From contig JBGCEJ010000006.1 in the NCBI GenBank assembly GCA_045106235.1, positions 43,455-107,454 of the forward strand: 64,000 nucleotides of DNA. Reading direction: 5' to 3'. Position numbers and translations under genes: made by a program. The notes below the pieces were generated by a model. It did no database searches. It was not told the DNA's origin and was given only the letters and a program-made list of their open reading frames with translations. This stretch comes from Myxococcota bacterium (GTDB lineage: Bacteria; Myxococcota_A; UBA9160; UBA4427). Positions 805 through 33,802 of the stretch are shown here, in pieces. The first letter of the stretch is position 1, and each line of letters opens with the position of its first letter.

Positions 805-1967
805 GTGTCGTCCCGGCTGCTGTCCGTGAAGTCGACGCGGCGTTAGTGAGGGTAGATCGCTCGACGGAGTTTCTTCGCCTCGTGACGCCGATCAACACGG
901 AGCAGGCCTGGGAAGATTTCGATCGATCCAACTTTGAGCGTGAACCCCGTTTTGTTCTGCCGCCACTCGACGCGGCACCACGCGAAGCTCTCGCAGCATT
1001 GGAGGCGGTTCCTGTTGCTGGCGTCGCGCACGCCGCGCTTCAGCGAATCTTCGGCGACCACTGCGAGCAGTTGCATCGCAAACTTCGCATGCTCGAGTCA
1101 CGGAACACGCCCGCCTTCGTGGCGGGAAGTCTCGAGGTCTTCGGCGGCGCAGATCCTGGGCTACTCCGTGAGGCCGAGAGCGTGCTCGAACGGGTCGCGT
1201 CACCTAGCACACAGGCATCAGGCGAGATCGTGACAGTAGACGCATTCGCACGGATCGCGCGGGAGGAATTGGCGCACTACGAGGCCATCTATCCGGAGTT
1301 CAGCTCCGTAGTCGAGATCGATCCGAACAGCTCCGGATTGGTCGTTTCGCATGGCCGCCTTCGAGTTGGAGCGGGCGCGCAGATATCCCGAAGTAGGGTC
1401 GAAGCGTTGCTCGCCCACGAGATCGGCACGCACGTGGTCACCTATGTCAACGGCAAGTCGCAGCCTATCCAACTGCTGTCATCCGGGCTTGCCGGCTACG
1501 AAGAGCTTCAGGAGGGCCTAGCATCCTTTGCAGAGTATCTGGTCGGCGGGCTCAAAGCGGATCGCATGCGACAGCTCGCGGCGCGCGTGGTGGCCGTTCA
1601 CCTGATGATCGAAGGAGCCGGCTTCATCGATATCTTTCGAAGGCTCCACGCTACGTTGGCGTTCCCGCCACGAGAGGCCTTCCTGATTTCCATGCGAGTC
1701 CTTCGAGGAGGGGGACTAACCAAGGACGCCATCTACTTGCGCGGGCTATCGAGGCTGCTGAGTTACCTGCGGGAGGAGGGCGATTTCGAGGAATTAATGC
1801 TCGGGAAGTACGCGCTCGGTCAACAGCCGTTCATTCGCCAATTGCGGGACGAGGGCGTACTCCATGGATCAGTCGTGCTTCCGCGGCATCTCGCCGCCGA
1901 CGGATCTCTCGCCCGCCTCGCTCGCGCTCGTCTAGGGATCTCGATGCCGGATCTCGTGTCCTCGTGA
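801..1967 (+). CDS. DUF1704 / QEGLA-motif protein (tyrosine/phenylalanine carboxypeptidase-like metalloprotease fold)
   Basis: HEIGTH zinc motif and YEELQEGLASFAEY (QEGLA) motif. GTG 801 overlaps the ATP-grasp stop (GTGA), with AAGGA 6 nt upstream. The 705-800 part of the ORF-track entry overlaps the previous gene. Confidence 0.8.
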   Translation: MSVVPAAVREVDAALVRVDRSTEFLRLVTPINTEQAWEDFDRSNFEREPRFVLPPLDAAPREALAALEAVPVAGVAHAALQRIFGDHCEQLHRKLRMLESRNTPAFVAGSLEVFGGADPGLLREAESVLERVASPSTQASGEIVTVDAFARIAREELAHYEAIYPEFSSVVEIDPNSSGLVVSHGRLRVGAGAQISRSRVEALLAHEIGTHVVTYVNGKSQPIQLLSSGLAGYEELQEGLASFAEYLVGGLKADRMRQLAARVVAVHLMIEGAGFIDIFRRLHATLAFPPREAFLISMRVLRGGGLTKDAIYLRGLSRLLSYLREEGDFEELMLGKYALGQQPFIRQLRDEGVLHGSVVLPRHLAADGSLARLARARLGISMPDLVSS

Positions 1968-2221
1968 TCCGCAGTCCATGGCATGGAAGGGGTTCGCCCC
2001 CTTGGCCCTGCGCGACACGAGTCGCGAGAGTCGAAGCCTGAACCGAGGTCAAGAACGGGTTTTCAGATTGTAACTATGTCCGGTATCGGCGGTCTTCTGC
2101 TAACCGGATGTCGCGTTACGCCGAGCGGGTCGCGCTAGAAAGTCGTGTGGTCTAGTCGAAATTTCCACTAGTCCGTTTGCATCTGAAGACACGAAGACTG
2201 CGCGTTTGCGGAGCCAAATTT

Positions 2222-2248
2222 CGACTTGACCTAAAGTTGACCTAAGTG
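2222..2248 (+). repeat. Direct-repeat motif CGAC-TTGACCT-AAAG-TTGACCT-AAGTG
   Basis: TTGACCT twice with 11-bp periodicity. A near-identical copy lies at 2474-2500, a collapsed copy at 24586-24602, and single CTTGACCT copies at 24698-24705 and (inverted) 2547-2554. Confidence 0.45.
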
Positions 2249-2322
2249 TCCGTCACGCACCTCTACGCACCGTAAACCTCGTAAACACCAATGAATTCAA
2301 GGATCGGAACACGTTGCCAACG

Positions 2323-2414
2323 GCAGGGGGAGCTGAGAGCGATCAGCGAGCGACGAGTATGAGAGGTCGCAGACCTCGAAGGGGATGCCAGTTCGAATCT
2401 GGTCTCGTGCTCCA
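2323..2414 (+). ncRNA. Non-canonical tRNA-like gene (class-II-like, 92 nt, encoded CCA)
   Basis: T-arm GCCAG-TTCGAAT-CTGGT (2387-2403). The 3' acceptor strand CTCGTGC pairs 6/7 with GCAGGGG (2323-2329). Discriminator T plus CCA (2411-2414). The D-arm is a 5-bp stem GCTGA/TCAGC with a 6-nt loop. The putative anticodon stem GCGAC/GTCGC closes an 11-nt loop. A terminator follows directly. It is not foldable into a standard cloverleaf by eye. Confidence 0.45.
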
Positions 2415-2417
2415 CTT

Positions 2418-2469
2418 AAACCCCCGATTGTTCTCGTGTATACGAGATGGTCGGGGGTTTTCTGTTGTT
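2418..2469 (+). terminator. Rho-independent terminator
   Basis: AAACCCCCGA ... TCGGGGGTTT outer stem, with inner stem TCTCGT-gtat-ACGAGA, followed by TTTTCTGTTGTT. Confidence 0.7.
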
Positions 2470-2473
2470 AGGC

Positions 2474-2500
2474 CTAGTTGACCAATACTTGACCTAGGTG
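2474..2500 (+). repeat. Second copy of the TTGACC-N5-TTGACCT direct-repeat motif
   Basis: CTAG-TTGACC-AATAC-TTGACCT-AGGTG, same orientation as 2222-2248, on the other side of the tRNA-like gene. Confidence 0.45.
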
Positions 2501-3343
2501 AGCTCTACTCGTGAGGCGAACGGCGAAGCATGCTTTCTAGGGAAGCAGGTCAAGTCTTGAGCGTCGGTTGTGCTTCGAGTCGACGACGCGATTCGTGTGC
2601 AACGTGATGGTTGCGTCCAGGACACAAGGCGTATACCGAGTCCTTCTTGTCCTCATTGGTCTCATAGGCGCCTCGAGCCGCGGCCTCTGTTTGTCTGCGA
2701 GGCTCGGTGAGTCCGCCGCGCCGATTGCGATGCCCCGGGGATCGGGGATTGGGCCACCCACTATTCGTGGTATTCAGGTCTCTTGGCTACTTCTTGGCTA
2801 TGAGGGCTGCGCAGTAAGCGGATTCAAAGGAGTTTCCGATTGCGCGAGACTTGCAGCGCCGCCGGCCGGCGCGAAATTGATCTTCCGACGTAGCGAAGTT
2901 CGGTTGGAGCGATCGCCTGTCGAACGCCCGGACAGGGTCACGACTGGCTTGGTGGCGCTATCGTCTCGATGTTGAGCTGACCCTCTAGACCCGCCAGACG
3001 ATGAACGAAGAACCCTTGATAGTCCGGCGACATTCCCATCTGGGTCAGGGCGGCGCGAGCGGGTAGACGGAGGTAAGGGGCCCCCTATGGGCGTTTGTGA
3101 ACCAGAATCTTCTCGAAAGTTGGGATTCGGACCGCACATTTCCGGCTTGAGAAGCAGAGTTGCCGATTTGTGGGGCATCAGGTGCGAGGATGGGCCGATT
3201 TCGATCAAGTGGGTGTCGTTGCTTTTTAGGCCCTGCCTACCTCCTGGATGGGGAGCGCCGGTGCGTTGAGGAAACCGGTTGCGATTCTTTGGGGAACCGA
3301 TGCCGAGTAAGAGACGGTCTTGGAGCTCCTTATTACGATGGAT

Positions 3344-10750: not shown

Positions 10751-10812
10751 GGACGGGGAGCTTCGAGCGAGAAGCGGGCGAACGGAATGCCGGTTCGAAT
10801 CTGGTCTCGCGC
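10751..10812 (+). pseudogene. Degenerate paralog of the 2323-2414 tRNA-like element, lacking the anticodon arm
   Basis: GGACGGG-GA-GCTTC-GAGCGA-GAAGC-13 nt-GCCGG-TTCGAAT-CTGGT-CTCGCGC. Same D-loop and T-loop as copy 1, with a compensatory D-stem change. About 26 nt are missing. Confidence 0.4.
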
Positions 10813-24370: not shown

Positions 24371-24585
24371 CCATTTCTCGGCTTGCCTTTGAAACCAGAG
24401 GAAGCACTTGATCGACTCCATTCGCTCTTGGAACGGCTGGGGCGGGCGCGCCGAGTAAGTCGCGTATCGGGCCTACTCGTCAGAATTTTCAGTATGAGCT
24501 CACCCCATTCCGTCCGAGATTTCTAGCCGTGCGTGGTATTGCCCGGTTTATATCGGCGTTCGAGCGTCGTGGGCGTTCGGATGGT

Positions 24586-24602
24586 CGACTTGACCTGAAG
24601 TG
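24586..24602 (+). repeat. Collapsed copy of the CGAC-TTGACCT-AAGTG motif
   Basis: CGACTTGACCTGAAGTG. A further CTTGACCT is at 24698-24705. Both lie in the intergenic region upstream of 24816. Confidence 0.4.
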
Positions 24603-24815
24603 GCCCTCAATGTTCGTGACGGACCTCTACGCGTGACAAACGTCGTATTGATCGTCGAGCTCGCTGCAAACCCCGATCCGGGGTTGACGCAGGTAAACTT
24701 GACCTCGCGAAAATATTTGGTCAGGCTTCCACCTTGATTGGAGTTGCCCGTGATTGCAGAGATCAACGGCTTCGCCGTCGGGAGGGGTCCTCGGGTGCGT
24801 GAATCGAAAAAGGGT

Positions 24816-30250: not shown

Positions 30251-33200
30251 TCACGCGCTCTCGGCAGCGTGTCCTCGGCGATACAAGGCTTGAAGGAGGC
30301 AGAGCCCTGCGCCTAGAAGGAGTCCAAATGCGGGCTCGGGAACGTACGAAGTCTCGAAAGTGCCTGTGAGTCCCCCAGTCACGAGGTCGAGATCGCCATT
30401 GCCGTCTAGGTCTGCGAACACCGGTGTGGAGAAGTCCCCCGTGTCCTCTCCGTCAAAGGGGTTGTCTGATCCGTTTCTGGAGATGAAGGTGGGGGCCGTC
30501 GCGCTCCCGGTATTCTCGAAGAAATAGAATACGCCGGCGAGTTCACCGACCACGAGATCCAGATCGCCGTCCTTGTCTGCATCGACGAGAGCAGGCGTCG
30601 AGTTTCTCCCGACATCTTCGCCATTCATCGGGTTGCTTGCGCCCGTGAGTTCCAGAAAGGTCGGGTTCGTTTTACTCCCCCTGTTCTCGAAATAGCGAAT
30701 CGTTCCTTCCTCGGCGCCCGAGATCAGGTCGAGGTCGCCATCGCCATCCAAGTCGCCCAGCGCGGGCGCCGACTCGAATCCAATATCCTCTGCGAACATT
30801 GGACTGCCGACTCCGGCGAGGACGGTAAAGTCGGGGTCGTTGGCCCTTCCTACGTTTTCGTAGTAGATGAATGTGCCGTTGACCTCGCCGGAAATAACAT
30901 CGTCATCCCCGTCGCCGTCGAGGTCTCCCAGGGCAGGCTTGGCGAGGGCGCCGACGACCTCGAGTCCAAAGGGACTCGCTGCCTGCTGGAAAATTGCGTT
31001 CGTGGCGCCGCCCGTGTTCTCAAAGAAGGTGAACCTTTGATCTTGCTCCCCTGAGATGAGGTCGAGGTCTCCGTCGCCATCGAGGTCGCTGAGTGCAGCG
31101 GCTGAATAGGAGCCAATATCGACGCCGCTGAGGGGGTTGTACGCGGCAATGAATCCCTGCATCGAACTCGTGGGGACGATGATCGTATTTTCGTAGAAGC
31201 GGAAATCACCGTCATCGGTCCCAACGATGAGGTCAAGGTCTCCGTCGCCGTCCATATCACCCGAGGAAGGTCCTGAATTGGCGCCCGCGAAGGGAATCTC
31301 GAGTGGGCTCGACGCGCCAGCGAGTTCGCTGAACGCGGGATTCATGGGGGTTCCCGTATTCTCAAAATAGTGGGACAAGCCGTTCTCGTCCCCGACAGCG
31401 AGATCGAGGTCTCCGTCCCCGTCAAAATCGCCGAGTGCCGGTTTTGAGCGATTGCCGATGTCCGCGCCGTCGAGGGGATTGGCAGCGCCGGTTTGGGGAG
31501 CGAAGTCGGGGCCCATGTTTTGGAAATAGGAGAGCGTGCCAAAGGCCTCGCCCACCAGGAGGTCCGGATCCCCATCCCCATCGAGGTCAGCCATGGTGGG
31601 GCTCGAGCTTATCCCCACATCGATATAGTCCACGCCGCTGAAGGGTTGGAAATTGAAAACCGGGTTCGTGCTGCTGCCCACATTGCTGTAGTAGAGAATT
31701 TCGCCTGAGCTTGCTCCGACAAAGAGATCAAGGTCTCCGTCGTGATCGAAGTCAGCGAGCGCCGGGCTGGAGCTACCACCCGTGCCTTCTCCGTCGAGCG
31801 GGTCGGCCGCGCCGACTTGCAAGATGAAGGCGGGGCTTGTCGCGGTCCCTGTGTTCAGGAAGTAGCTAAAAGTACCGTCGAGTTTTCCGCTAATGACGTC
31901 GAGGTCCCCATCGCCGTCGAGGTCGGCTTGGACCGGGGAAGAGACGAGTCCGATATCCTGACCTTCGAGTGGGTTCCCGCTTCCGACACGTTCAATCATG
32001 ACGCTGTCGAGGTTCTCGAAATACGTCACGCCCGACGGCCCACCTTGGTAGAGGAGGTCTATATCGCCATCGCCGTCGAGGTCGCCGCCCGTCGGATTCT
32101 CACCATTCTGGCTGAGCTCGCTGTAGCGGAAAGCGCCTTGATTGATCGCCTGGGGAACGAATACTGGATTGGTGGCACTTCCCGTATTCTCCAAATAGAC
32201 AGGACTAAAGCCCAATGCGACGGCATCCAAGTCGCCGTCGCTATCGAGATCGCCGAACCAGACGCTGTGTGTGTTGCCTGGATTAATTCCGTCGAGTGGG
32301 TTGGCGGCACCGACCTGGAGCGTGAAGACCGGGCTCAAGGCGCTTCCCGTATTCTCGAAATAGCGAAATCCGGCCGAGAGTCCGCCCACCATCAAGTCCA
32401 GATCGAGGTCTCCGTCGAGATCCGCCAGGGTCGGTTGGGCGAAGACTCCGCCGTTCACTCCGTCGAGTGGATTCCCCGCTCCAGTCAGCTCCGTGAAAAC
32501 CGGCGAATTGGCCGTGCCCGTATTCGAGTAGTAGACGAAGAATCCGGTATTGATTCCGACGAGAAGATCGAGGTCGCCGTCGCCGTCGAGATCGCCGATC
32601 GCGGGAATGCTATCGAGTCCGGCATCGAATCCATCGAGCGGATTCTGAATTCCAACTTGAGCCGTAAAGCTTGGAGCGTTCGCTGACCCCGTGTTTTCGA
32701 AATAGCGAAAGTCGCCGCCTGATTGTCCGGCGAGCAAGTCGAGATCCCCATCCGCATCGAGATCCGCCATCGCAGGAGCCAATCCGGATCCGAGGCTGGC
32801 TAGGCTCAGCCCGTCGAAGACGTTTGCTCGCTTCTCTCGTTCGACCAAGTCGCCTTGGAGGTTCTCGAAGTAGACAAGCGTTCCAAGATCACCGTCCATC
32901 GCAACCAGGTCGAGGTCGCCGTCGCCGTCAAGATCGCCGAATGCGGGACGCGGACGGAAGTTGAGATCGGCTTCTTTGAGTGGGTTTGCCTCGTCTTCGA
33001 GCAACTCAAAGACAGGCGCATTGACGCTGCCTGTATTCTCGGCATAGCGAAGGCCGAAGCCAATTGTCAGCACGAGGTCTAAATCGGAGTCCCCATCTAA
33101 GTCGTGGAAGCGGAGGCCTTGGGCCGTGAACGTCGAACCCAATCCATCGAAGGGGTTGTCGGTCCCCGTTTGGTAGAGGAAGACTGGATTGACCGGCGTT

Positions 33201-33802
33201 CCGATATTCTCAAAGTAGAAAAAGACTGAAAATTGCTGCACGACGAGGTCGACGTCGCCGTCCCCATCGACATCCGCCATCGCCAGCCTTCTTGTGTTGG
33301 TGTCGAGGGCAGACATGAAGGAACTCGGCCCGTCGAGCGGGTTAGTTGGTCCGCTCTGAAGGACGAAGTTGGCGTTCGTCGCGCTGCCCGTGTTTCTGTA
33401 GTAGCTGATCTCGCCGCCGGCTTGGCCTGAGACCATGTCCAGGTCGCCGTCCGCATCAAGGTCGACCATATGAGGCGAGCTCGATTGGGAATAGCCGACG
33501 CCGTTCAGTGGGCTGGCGGATCCGGTCTGCTCGACGAAGTTCGGCGCAGTCGCTGTTCCCGTGTTCTCGTGGTAGGCGAAGTCGCCTGTGCTCTGGCCGA
33601 GAATGAGGTCTAGATCCCCGTCTCCGTCGAGATCGGCCAGCGCTGGCGAGGAAGCGACGTCCACGATCTCGCCATCAAAGAGATTGTCTACGCCAATGCG
33701 TGGGGCGAAGAGTGTTGCGTCGGCTGAGGCCAGGCCAGCTGCGAATCCGACGGCCAGCATAACGGCGACGATCTTAGTCGCGAAGGGGAGCAATTGAATC
33801 AT
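30251..33802 (-). CDS. FG-GAP/VCBS repeat protein with PEP-CTERM anchor (about 1180 aa)
   Basis: More than 15 repeats of ...DLDGDGDLDL...YFENTGSA.NP.F. C-terminus YVPEPAFGLLLGAGLCLLQALYRR. The start is either ATG 33802 (signal-peptide-like) or 33871. Confidence 0.9.
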   Translation of the reverse strand: MIQLLPFATKIVAVMLAVGFAAGLASADATLFAPRIGVDNLFDGEIVDVASSPALADLDGDGDLDLILGQSTGDFAYHENTGTATAPNFVEQTGSASPLNGVGYSQSSSPHMVDLDADGDLDMVSGQAGGEISYYRNTGSATNANFVLQSGPTNPLDGPSSFMSALDTNTRRLAMADVDGDGDVDLVVQQFSVFFYFENIGTPVNPVFLYQTGTDNPFDGLGSTFTAQGLRFHDLDGDSDLDLVLTIGFGLRYAENTGSVNAPVFELLEDEANPLKEADLNFRPRPAFGDLDGDGDLDLVAMDGDLGTLVYFENLQGDLVEREKRANVFDGLSLASLGSGLAPAMADLDADGDLDLLAGQSGGDFRYFENTGSANAPSFTAQVGIQNPLDGFDAGLDSIPAIGDLDGDGDLDLLVGINTGFFVYYSNTGTANSPVFTELTGAGNPLDGVNGGVFAQPTLADLDGDLDLDLMVGGLSAGFRYFENTGSALSPVFTLQVGAANPLDGINPGNTHSVWFGDLDSDGDLDAVALGFSPVYLENTGSATNPVFVPQAINQGAFRYSELSQNGENPTGGDLDGDGDIDLLYQGGPSGVTYFENLDSVMIERVGSGNPLEGQDIGLVSSPVQADLDGDGDLDVISGKLDGTFSYFLNTGTATSPAFILQVGAADPLDGEGTGGSSSPALADFDHDGDLDLFVGASSGEILYYSNVGSSTNPVFNFQPFSGVDYIDVGISSSPTMADLDGDGDPDLLVGEAFGTLSYFQNMGPDFAPQTGAANPLDGADIGNRSKPALGDFDGDGDLDLAVGDENGLSHYFENTGTPMNPAFSELAGASSPLEIPFAGANSGPSSGDMDGDGDLDLIVGTDDGDFRFYENTIIVPTSSMQGFIAAYNPLSGVDIGSYSAAALSDLDGDGDLDLISGEQDQRFTFFENTGGATNAIFQQAASPFGLEVVGALAKPALGDLDGDGDDDVISGEVNGTFIYYENVGRANDPDFTVLAGVGSPMFAEDIGFESAPALGDLDGDGDLDLISGAEEGTIRYFENRGSKTNPTFLELTGASNPMNGEDVGRNSTPALVDADKDGDLDLVVGELAGVFYFFENTGSATAPTFISRNGSDNPFDGEDTGDFSTPVFADLDGNGDLDLVTGGLTGTFETSYVPEPAFGLLLGAGLCLLQALYRRGHAAESA

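Follow-up and report, generated by a model that had tools for sequence, protein, structure and literature searches.

A covarying two-hairpin insert in tRNA-derived island junctions of uncultured Myxococcota

Fragments of transfer RNA (tRNA) genes are routine at the ends of genomic islands and are often mistaken for odd tRNAs. An element at positions 2323-2469 of a 64,000-nucleotide (nt) stretch of a Myxococcota genome (assembly GCA_045106235.1, contig JBGCEJ010000006.1, here C6, positions 43,455 to 107,454 of the forward strand) raises the question of which of the two it is. This whole stretch is called the window. A first, sequence-only reading of the element described a non-canonical 92-nt tRNA-like gene and offered an unusual or recoding tRNA, a tRNA-derived small RNA or a decaying tRNA gene as explanations. 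The element is probably an island-junction copy of a tRNA-Gly(GCC) 3' half that carries a conserved insert, module M, and not a free-standing tRNA gene. The sequence-only reading missed the many copies, the location at an island junction and the covarying insert common to different tRNA types. The case shows that an odd tRNA can be resolved by locating the parent tRNA gene.

The tRNA-like parts of the element are plain to see. The T-arm GCCAG/TTCGAAT/CTGGT (2387-2403) closes with a G-U pair and is followed by the acceptor 3' strand CTCGTGC (2404-2410), a T (2411) and CCA (2412-2414). Behind them stands a composite hairpin of 43 nt (2418-2460; -27.4 kcal/mol, z = -6.2, equalled by 0 of 200 shuffles), which runs into a U-rich tail; a simple terminator scan missed this hairpin. 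Together with the identity to tRNA-Gly, these features bear out the description of the element as tRNA-derived and non-canonical, with an encoded CCA and a terminator-like hairpin. The fold of the complete 92-nt element is not better than that of its shuffles (z = -0.5). Canonical tRNA architecture is absent, as there is no anticodon arm and the 7-base-pair (bp) acceptor stem is not conserved in homologues. The searches proposed for a tRNA or a transfer-messenger RNA (tmRNA) came back empty: ARAGORN reported 0 tRNA or tmRNA genes over the window, Rfam at gathering thresholds gave no match for the element, including tRNA (RF00005, 29 bits), tRNA-Sec and the tmRNA families, and Rfam at E <= 10 gave no tRNA match over 1800-3000. 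The sub-threshold Rfam matches at E <= 10 (SpF41, rdlD) stem from the T-arm and the terminator.

The parent of these parts lies on the same contig. The only tRNA-Gly(GCC) in the genome is a bona fide gene at C6:22222-22297, 23.5 kb upstream on the same strand (Rfam 68.6 bits). Its last 28 nt are identical to 2387-2414, its anticodon-stem and loop sequence CACGTTGCCAACG (13 nt) is identical to 2310-2322, and the hairpin that follows it, with a 'TTGTTGTTAGGT...TTGACC...TTGACCTAA' stretch, is homologous to the sequence 3' of the element. The element has what marks a tRNA-gene (tDNA) fragment: exact copies of 13 and 28 nt of the 3' part of the tRNA, on the same replicon, in the same orientation and downstream of the intact gene. 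U73, previously taken as a hint of tRNA-Cys, is no more than the discriminator of tRNA-Gly. When the assembly that contains the window was searched, eight related places turned up on C6, and two more full copies are located at C6:31142-31252 and C6:38289-38391. The hairpin T2 behind the element is homologous to the sequence directly 3' of the real tRNA-Gly and of these two copies.

The interior of the element is not tRNA. Alignment to tRNA-Gly gives ...TTGCCAA-CGnnA-GGG, then M, then (AT/TC)-GCCAG..., which places M between G46 and U47 of the variable loop. The general form of M is GGGGGA-P1-GAGUAKGA-P2-GAAGGGRAU, the module being 55-80 nt long; the interior is 61-64 nt long. P1 is a 5-8-bp stem with tandem G-A/A-G, two G-C pairs and a GAUNA loop, and P2 is a hairpin of 3-15 bp with freely variable sequence. 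Each of the two is bracketed by GA...GA. Two covariance models were used, R1 for the whole element and R2 for the interior only, and this copy scores 116 bits (E ~1e-23) with R1 and 84.5 bits with R2. In the R1 alignment (62 copies) 91.6% of cells are paired vs 30-42% in slid controls, with 157 both-side changes vs ~38 in shuffles; in the R2 alignment of M only (74 copies) 93.4% are paired vs 24-35%, with 160 both-side changes vs ~40, and these pair counts, coming from alignments fitted to a covariance model, lean toward the modelled structure. Compensatory changes are found in every pair of P1 and P2, and the inner P1 G-C pair flips to C-G nine times. The variety of P1 is plain by eye: GCUGC/GCAGC, GUCGC/GCGAC, GCCGC/GCGGC, GUUGC/GCAAC, GCUGU/ACAGC and GCUGA/UCAGC, and also CGAUCUGC/GCAGAUCG, CGAAUCGC/GUGAUUCG and AAAACUGU/ACAGUUUU. 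The sense strand often has G-U pairs, and P2 shows few unpaired cells or would-be A-C mismatches; this pattern is consistent with a sense-strand fold.

Measured against the family, the helices drawn earlier from this single copy fare unevenly. All three local hairpins (GCTGA/GAGCGA/TCAGC, GCGAC...GTCGC and GAGGTC-GCA-GACCTC) are found in the element. The one that had been regarded as competing, GAGGUC-GCA-GACCUC, is P2, and it is the sole helix of the three to be conserved in the family. The helix GCGAC/GTCGC with its 11-nt loop clashes with a hairpin that covaries across the family, and the proposed D-arm GCUGA/UCAGC can pair, as one of two alternative pairings of P1. The acceptor pairing GCAGGGG/CTCGTGC is found in this copy alone; GAAGGGG, TGAGGGG or similar stands in place of GCAGGGG in others. 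The comparative alignment that had been called for thus upholds P2 through its covariation and finds neither the acceptor nor the 'anticodon' helix conserved. The acceptor-stem candidates tried (GCAGGGG, bulged GC(G)ACGAG and GUAUGAG) do not covary, and all fail in the copies derived from tRNA-Arg; GC(G)ACGAG also overlaps the covarying P1 helix. The R1 'acceptor' helix GUAUGAG/CUCGUGC varies almost on one side only and is broken in the same Arg-type copies, and it is not regarded as real.

Table 1. Features of the element, of its flanks and of two related places in the window (positions count from the first letter of the window).
Feature	Position	Strand	Sequence or evidence
R arm, right-end arm of the upstream island (unit 3)	2221-2309	+	two phased repeats TTGACCTAAAGTTGACCTAAG at 2226-2246
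Copy of tRNA-Gly(GCC) anticodon-stem 5' strand and anticodon loop	2310-2322	+	CACGTTGCCAACG; tRNA-Gly positions 28-40
Module M at the variable-loop position	2323-2386	+	covariance models R1, R2
M leader	2323-2331	+	GCAGGGGGA
M hairpin P1	2332-2336 (5' strand), 2341-2345 (loop), 2350-2354 (3' strand)	+	5' GCTGA, GA, GC, loop GATCA, GC, GA, 3' GCGAC
M linker between P1 and P2	2355-2362	+	GAGTATGA
M hairpin P2	2363-2377	+	GAGGTC-GCA-GACCTC
M 3' linker	2378-2386	+	GAAGGGGAT
T-arm, tRNA-Gly(GCC) copy	2387-2403	+	100% identity to C6:22270-22297, C6:31018-31045, C6:38165-38192
Acceptor 3' strand, discriminator and CCA, tRNA-Gly(GCC) copy	2404-2414	+	CTCGTGC + T + CCA
T2, composite hairpin and U-rich tail, terminator-like; begins the left arm of the downstream island	2415-2470	+	fold; homology
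P' arm / L, left end of the downstream island (unit 4)	2478-2645	+	TTGACC at 2478-2483 and 2489-2494, then conserved non-coding
Degenerate shortened relative	10751-10812	+	P1-like GCTTC/GAGCGA/GAAGC + T-arm + CTCGCGC; R1 31.6 bits
Probable decayed junction	24585-24720	+	R-like arm (78% identity to 2221-2283), short hairpin, TTGAC..TTGACC pair

The relatives that carry the element are metagenome-assembled genomes (MAGs) of uncultured Myxococcota. R1 finds it in 31 of 68 family genomes, with up to 18 copies per genome, and R2 finds M in 17 of 401 genomes sampled across the phylum, all in one order, where more than 70 copies of M are present. This genome has four copies of M, every one in the context of a tRNA half. 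In several uninvaded relatives a native layout is seen, in which the tRNA-Gly gene is followed by a terminator, a conserved spacer (...TTGGAsCC...TTAAGAGCAT) and one or two tandem copies of the element, each native copy with its own terminator. The window copy shares the layout of the family, namely the anticodon-loop remnant, two hairpins flanked by GA/GA, T-arm, acceptor strand and CCA. The T-arm, acceptor and CCA are intact in most copies while the sequence of P2 differs freely. Several copies are degenerate; the one at 10751-10812 of the window is without P2, CCA and R arm. P2 was also considered as a dispersed repeat resembling repetitive extragenic palindromes (REP), and this was rejected, as its sequences are not repeated elsewhere in the genome. 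The same Myxococcota-type elements appear in MAGs labelled 'uncultured Spirochaetaceae' (L090, L096, L102, L103, L109, L111), and these labels are probably wrong. The 15-mer GAGCGAT(C/G)AGCGAGC (GAGCGATNAGCGAGC), which matches the P1 loop of M, is present immediately upstream of tRNA genes in two unrelated organisms, at tRNA-Gly(GCC) in Erythrobacter cryptus DSM 12079 (L095 650-722) and at tRNA-Gln in a Blautia MAG (L092 6622-6708). This is probably coincidence, with ~0.2-0.5 chance matches expected.

M is not confined to tRNA-Gly. It is found at the same position in tRNA-Arg(CCG) 3' halves that lie downstream of tRNA-Val(CAC)-tRNA-Arg(CCG) in several genomes, and this genome has it in a tRNA-Arg(TCG) 3' half at C63:7959-8049, on the minus strand (locus L121 about 950-1065). 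The C63 element consists of a complete anticodon stem-loop, M, the T-arm with one substitution in its 5' strand, the acceptor strand and ACCA. Its identity to the real tRNA-Arg(TCG) (C5:215896-215972) covers the anticodon stem-loop, the T-arm and the acceptor end. A full-length tRNA-Arg(CCG)::M is present in one relative (G021, contig C201; L078 1468-1616), to which the tRNA model of Rfam gives 41 bits, placing a 73-nt insertion in the variable region, and which ARAGORN does not report. On contig C787 this relative keeps an intact tRNA-Arg(CCG). All three host tRNAs have the variable loop GGGTC in common. Within a genus the M variants of Gly-type and Arg-type sites are near-identical, and therefore M appears to have been exchanged or homogenised among site types; between genera the variants differ. 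ARAGORN found no tRNA-Arg(CCG) in the present 93%-complete assembly, though relatives have tRNA-Val(CAC)-tRNA-Arg(CCG)-X, and the locus may lie in an assembly gap caused by repeats.

What does such an element do at the place where it lies? The three full copies on C6 are 7-8.7 kb apart, and each is arranged as R, core, T2 and L. The order at a junction is R (~90 nt, with two phased TTGACCTAAG repeats), the tRNA-Gly-derived part, which starts at the anticodon stem in each case, T2, two TTGACC and then L, which is about 150-200 nt of conserved non-coding sequence at the left end of an island. The window R arm is 92-93% identical to the arms at C6:30909-31015 and C6:38056-38162, and ~90% identical to arms in another family (G400, L127) and in metagenome contigs. 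The pattern TTGACC-N5-TTGACC occurs 6 times in the 5.8 Mb genome, always at tRNA-Gly island junctions. Upstream, at the other two junctions, an exact tRNA-Gly 3' half of 48 nt comes after R, and behind it a second terminator (T1), a 60-nt spacer and the element; at the window junction R passes via CACGTTGCCAACG straight into the element. The L of each island has a palindrome GACCATCACG-N7-CGTGATGGTC followed by GGAcGTATACaGAG (L009 7474-7500, L009 16432-16455, L010 3563-3592), with a degenerate copy in the window at about 2590-2615; this non-coding palindrome may be an operator or an accessory recombination site. No small conserved open reading frame that could encode an excisionase was found in the L arm.

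The units between the junctions are 7-8.7 kb long and carry acyl-CoA dehydrogenase, DsbA, luciferase-like oxidoreductase and sulfatases; TauD, MFS transporters and RimK/ATP-grasp/MATCAP; and an MHYT kinase with two response regulators. The cargo is unrelated between units, and every junction has conserved R and T2/L arms. The differences in cargo contradict a tandem segmental duplication, in which it would be identical. The integrase family PF00589 has no match on C6, and Pfam scans of the unit genes gave cargo only, with no integrase in any of the four units, so the islands do not hold an integrase of their own. Unrelated cargo in each unit, attachment (att)-type sites with conserved arms and no recombination module are the marks of cis-mobilizable elements (CIMEs) and integrative and mobilizable elements (IMEs), and the array shows all of them. 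Five relatives (G007, G012, G019, G025, G036), a sister genus among them, share the gene order of the 9 kb upstream of tRNA-Gly. Downstream of tRNA-Gly synteny is lost, and only junction modules match in the relatives. A break of this kind marks a hotspot of tDNA integration at which islands stand in tandem. The related place at 24585-24720, from which the tRNA-derived core is lost, is probably a decayed junction, and the array at tRNA-Gly would thus be more than 46 kb long. Searches for known mobile elements gave no plasmid or phage match, and no match in IMG/VR for the M or R pattern.

The relatives show how such junctions are put together. At least 9 unrelated left arms are joined to tRNA-derived sequence exactly between TT and GCCAAC. 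In G007 a 455-aa tyrosine integrase lies directly beside tRNA-Gly, and tRNA identity begins again at TTGCCAAC at the far end of this island. The joints seen connect R to H3+T2, R to H3+T1+spacer and on to an M-bearing half, R to an M-bearing half with T2, R to an M-bearing half with the native terminator, and the spacer to an M-bearing half with T2. In metagenome contigs R is joined to each possible right-hand partner, whether a normal 3' half or the element, with varied terminators. The R-M junction is ~90% identical in a different family, which suggests that it may have spread horizontally. These joints point to site-specific recombination within the anticodon-loop sequence TGCCAAC, as in the 'A' class of tDNA crossover sites, presumably by a recombinase supplied in trans. 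Such a recombinase would cross over at TGCCAAC and would shuffle left parts (the tRNA 5' half, the native spacer or the island arms) against right parts, which would be either a normal or an M-bearing 3' half, and the M-bearing halves would be carried in the island attP. It is well supported that the element is a copy of an M-bearing tRNA-Gly 3' half at an island junction. It would make up the core of an attP-like joint where two cargo islands meet, in a tandem array anchored at the sole tRNA-Gly(GCC) gene, and the window copy would be an attP-like structure re-formed between two tandemly integrated elements.

As to its role, M may well act as a sense-strand RNA, a structured domain on a scaffold made of a tRNA 3' half, at a locus that doubles as a secondary 'safe-harbour' att site. 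M would then be transcribed and function as RNA. This role is favoured because native copies have their own conserved spacer and terminator, because the T-arm, acceptor, discriminator and CCA stay intact while P2 varies freely, and because pairing and not sequence is conserved. A wider proposal, which we regard as tentative and rather doubtful as a whole, is that M is an undescribed RNA domain grafted at the variable-arm position of Gly-GCC, Arg-CCG and Arg-TCG halves and exchanged within the lineage. It would be expressed as part of a tRNA-derived scaffold, sometimes as a complete tRNA whose variable arm measures ~75 nt, and would act in a tRNA-anchored island system with its recombinase in trans, for example by marking or regulating 'safe-harbour' att sites.

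Several findings, beside the lean of the pair counts, weigh against a working RNA on a mobile island. A sigma-70 scan found no promoter, and the native spacer, read by eye as a sigma-54 or a sigma-70 promoter, fits neither. That spacer is missing from the window copy, which makes the expression of this copy uncertain. The outer P1 helix of the window copy has 3/5 pairs only, since its distal partner GCGAC matches no further, and this leaves the alternative pairing GCUGA/UCAGC open. Most Gly-type copies read CGGAA instead of CGUGA in the 3' strand of the anticodon stem, and because of this damage chimeric tRNAs made from them are probably defective. The acceptor 3' strand of Arg-type copies has no pairing partner, and stand-alone copies therefore cannot fold into a tRNA-like minihelix. 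Both the lack of a conserved acceptor partner in stand-alone copies and the damaged anticodon-stem strand of Gly-type copies weaken the idea of a simple 'tRNA mimic'. Searches in and next to R-type islands of this genome, of G400 (C34) and of two long metagenome contigs turned up no recombinase, neither a circular form nor an empty site was seen, and we infer the mobility of the islands from their structure only.

A sense-strand RNA has to be compared with a role at the DNA level only, in which M would be an accessory recombination site, a protein platform or a folded single-stranded DNA like integron attC, with the tRNA-like ends carried along. M is always inside att-type junctions, between the crossover sequence and the P' arm, and the integrase-less cargo blocks are separated by structured sites in a loosely cassette-like way. 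Sites that fold as single-stranded DNA show hairpin covariation too, and the genus-specific variants across tRNA types look as if M co-evolved with a lineage-specific protein. However, the native copies own a conserved upstream spacer and terminators, and a DNA site needs neither an intact CCA nor a discriminator nor a T-arm. The G-U pairs favour the sense strand. Palindromes bound by proteins keep their sequence, whereas P2 is free both in sequence and in length. We therefore consider a role in DNA alone unlikely.

M could also be a small mobile insert, non-autonomous and directed at the GGG^TC variable loop of tRNA genes and tRNA-derived att halves, that resembles a miniature inverted-repeat transposable element or an intron, or spreads by gene conversion, its hairpins being kept only so that the tRNA fold tolerates them. 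Such an origin, which is not exclusive of the other readings, accounts for the single insertion point in three tRNAs that share GGGTC, for the full-length tRNA-Arg(CCG)::M, and for the near-identity of Gly- and Arg-type M within a genus and its divergence between genera. In the 3' linker CGAAGGGRAU the target CGUGAGGGUC looks as if it were repeated, much as in a target-site duplication. On the other side, M is never found outside tRNA-half contexts (4/4 copies of this genome), and neither terminal inverted repeats nor a transposase or reverse transcriptase associated with M were found. An intact tRNA host is seen for just 1 of the more than 70 copies, in a genome that keeps a normal tRNA-Arg(CCG), and the conserved loop and linker sequences imply more than passive tolerance. 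A mere mobile insert is accordingly a quite unlikely explanation of M.

The suggestion of a decaying tRNA gene is partly right. The ends of the element are exact tRNA-Gly 3'-half sequence at an island boundary, which is the classic way for tRNA fragments to arise (PMC4383910, PMC9897764), some copies are degenerate, and the tRNA-like parts are indeed the 3' half of tRNA-Gly(GCC), or the 3' remnant of an ordinary tRNA that had been named as an outcome fatal to the sequence-only reading. The interior is not the neutral junk of a displaced tDNA half, because it is a conserved insert that persists in different genera and families, each base pair of P1 and P2 showing compensatory changes, and because it recurs in other tRNA types. 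Covariation and multi-tRNA distribution largely refute plain decay, which is highly improbable for the element as a whole. A functional non-canonical tRNA, whether Sec-like, allo-tRNA or recoding, hardly deserves credence, for although the T-arm, acceptor 3' strand, discriminator and CCA are intact and a 6/7 acceptor pairing can be drawn in this one copy, neither ARAGORN nor Rfam finds a cloverleaf or a tRNA-Sec, even at E <= 10, an anticodon arm is missing, the first hairpin of M accounts for the 'long D-stem', the family does not conserve the acceptor and 'anticodon' helices as drawn, and a canonical tRNA-SeC(TCA) (C23:456580-456678) and a full tRNA set are encoded in the genome.

How does the element, read as a junction copy of an M-bearing half, compare with known systems? 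Fragments of tDNA are known at the ends of genomic islands (the tDNA integration principle; the Islander database), including a class of crossover sites, 'A', centred on the anticodon (PMC4383910). The mis-annotation of tRNA fragments is also known (PMC9897764). The element resembles these fragments as an exact tRNA 3' copy in the same orientation, downstream of the intact gene, that marks a boundary at a synteny break, and its tRNA identity starts at the anticodon stem-loop as in the 'A' class. It differs from them in being interrupted at the variable loop by a conserved covarying module, in occurring also as apparently native units with spacer and terminator, and in that the islands are integrase-less. 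Tandem islands are present at the Dehalococcoides ssrA gene (PMC3146451), and the accretion of integrase-less mobilizable or cis-mobilizable elements has been described (PMC13651849). As in those arrays, unrelated islands lie head to tail at one t(m)DNA with 3'-end repeats between them, and some are without recombination genes. Here, by contrast, none of the four units has a recombinase, and the separators are composites of ~400 nt that combine phased-TTGACC arms with an M-bearing tRNA half.

Class II tRNAs, tRNA-Sec and allo-tRNAs likewise have extra structure between the anticodon stem and the T-stem. M exceeds every natural variable arm in length by a factor of 3-5, is made up of two hairpins and purine-rich linkers, and is mostly found on 3' halves that are without the 5' acceptor strand, D-arm and anticodon stem. 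The tRNA-like non-coding RNAs (ncRNAs), such as the tRNA-like domain of tmRNA, YrlA and SpF41, share with the element a T-arm and an acceptor-like CCA end on a structure that is not tRNA, and for SpF41 there is a weak sub-threshold resemblance (23.8 bits vs a gathering score of 52). The element is below all Rfam thresholds, has no conserved acceptor partner and is tied to att sites in its location. The likeness to integron attC is a resemblance only: pairing is conserved rather than sequence, and recombinase-less cargo is separated. Unlike attC arrays, the present one is built of 7-9 kb blocks that each comprise several genes and their own regulation, its sites contain tRNA-derived sequence together with lambda-like arm repeats, and no IntI-type integrase or attI is found near the element.

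The tDNA fragments at island ends and the tandem arrays are of a known kind, and the M insert is new; we found no published description of a conserved structured insert at the variable-loop position of tRNA halves in att sites. It is unusual that a covarying two-hairpin insert occupies the one structure-tolerant position of a tRNA in att sites derived from three tRNAs, and that M is seen on islands as well as in native tandem units next to tRNA genes. Should M prove to be an RNA, it would constitute a new clade-specific ncRNA family of uncultured marine Myxococcota and a natural tRNA-scaffolded domain. If it is a DNA site, it would be part of an unusual att architecture for metabolic-cargo islands without a recombinase. 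In both cases R1 and R2 give a sequence handle with which a large system of island exchange can be mapped at the tRNA-Gly and tRNA-Arg loci.

Elsewhere in the window, a minus-strand frame at 30380-33660 holds ~13 copies of a 171-nt (57-aa) repeat rich in GTCGAGGTCGCCGTCGCC, of D-x-D-x-D-G type. It is probably a large FG-GAP/VCBS-like surface protein and unrelated to the element.

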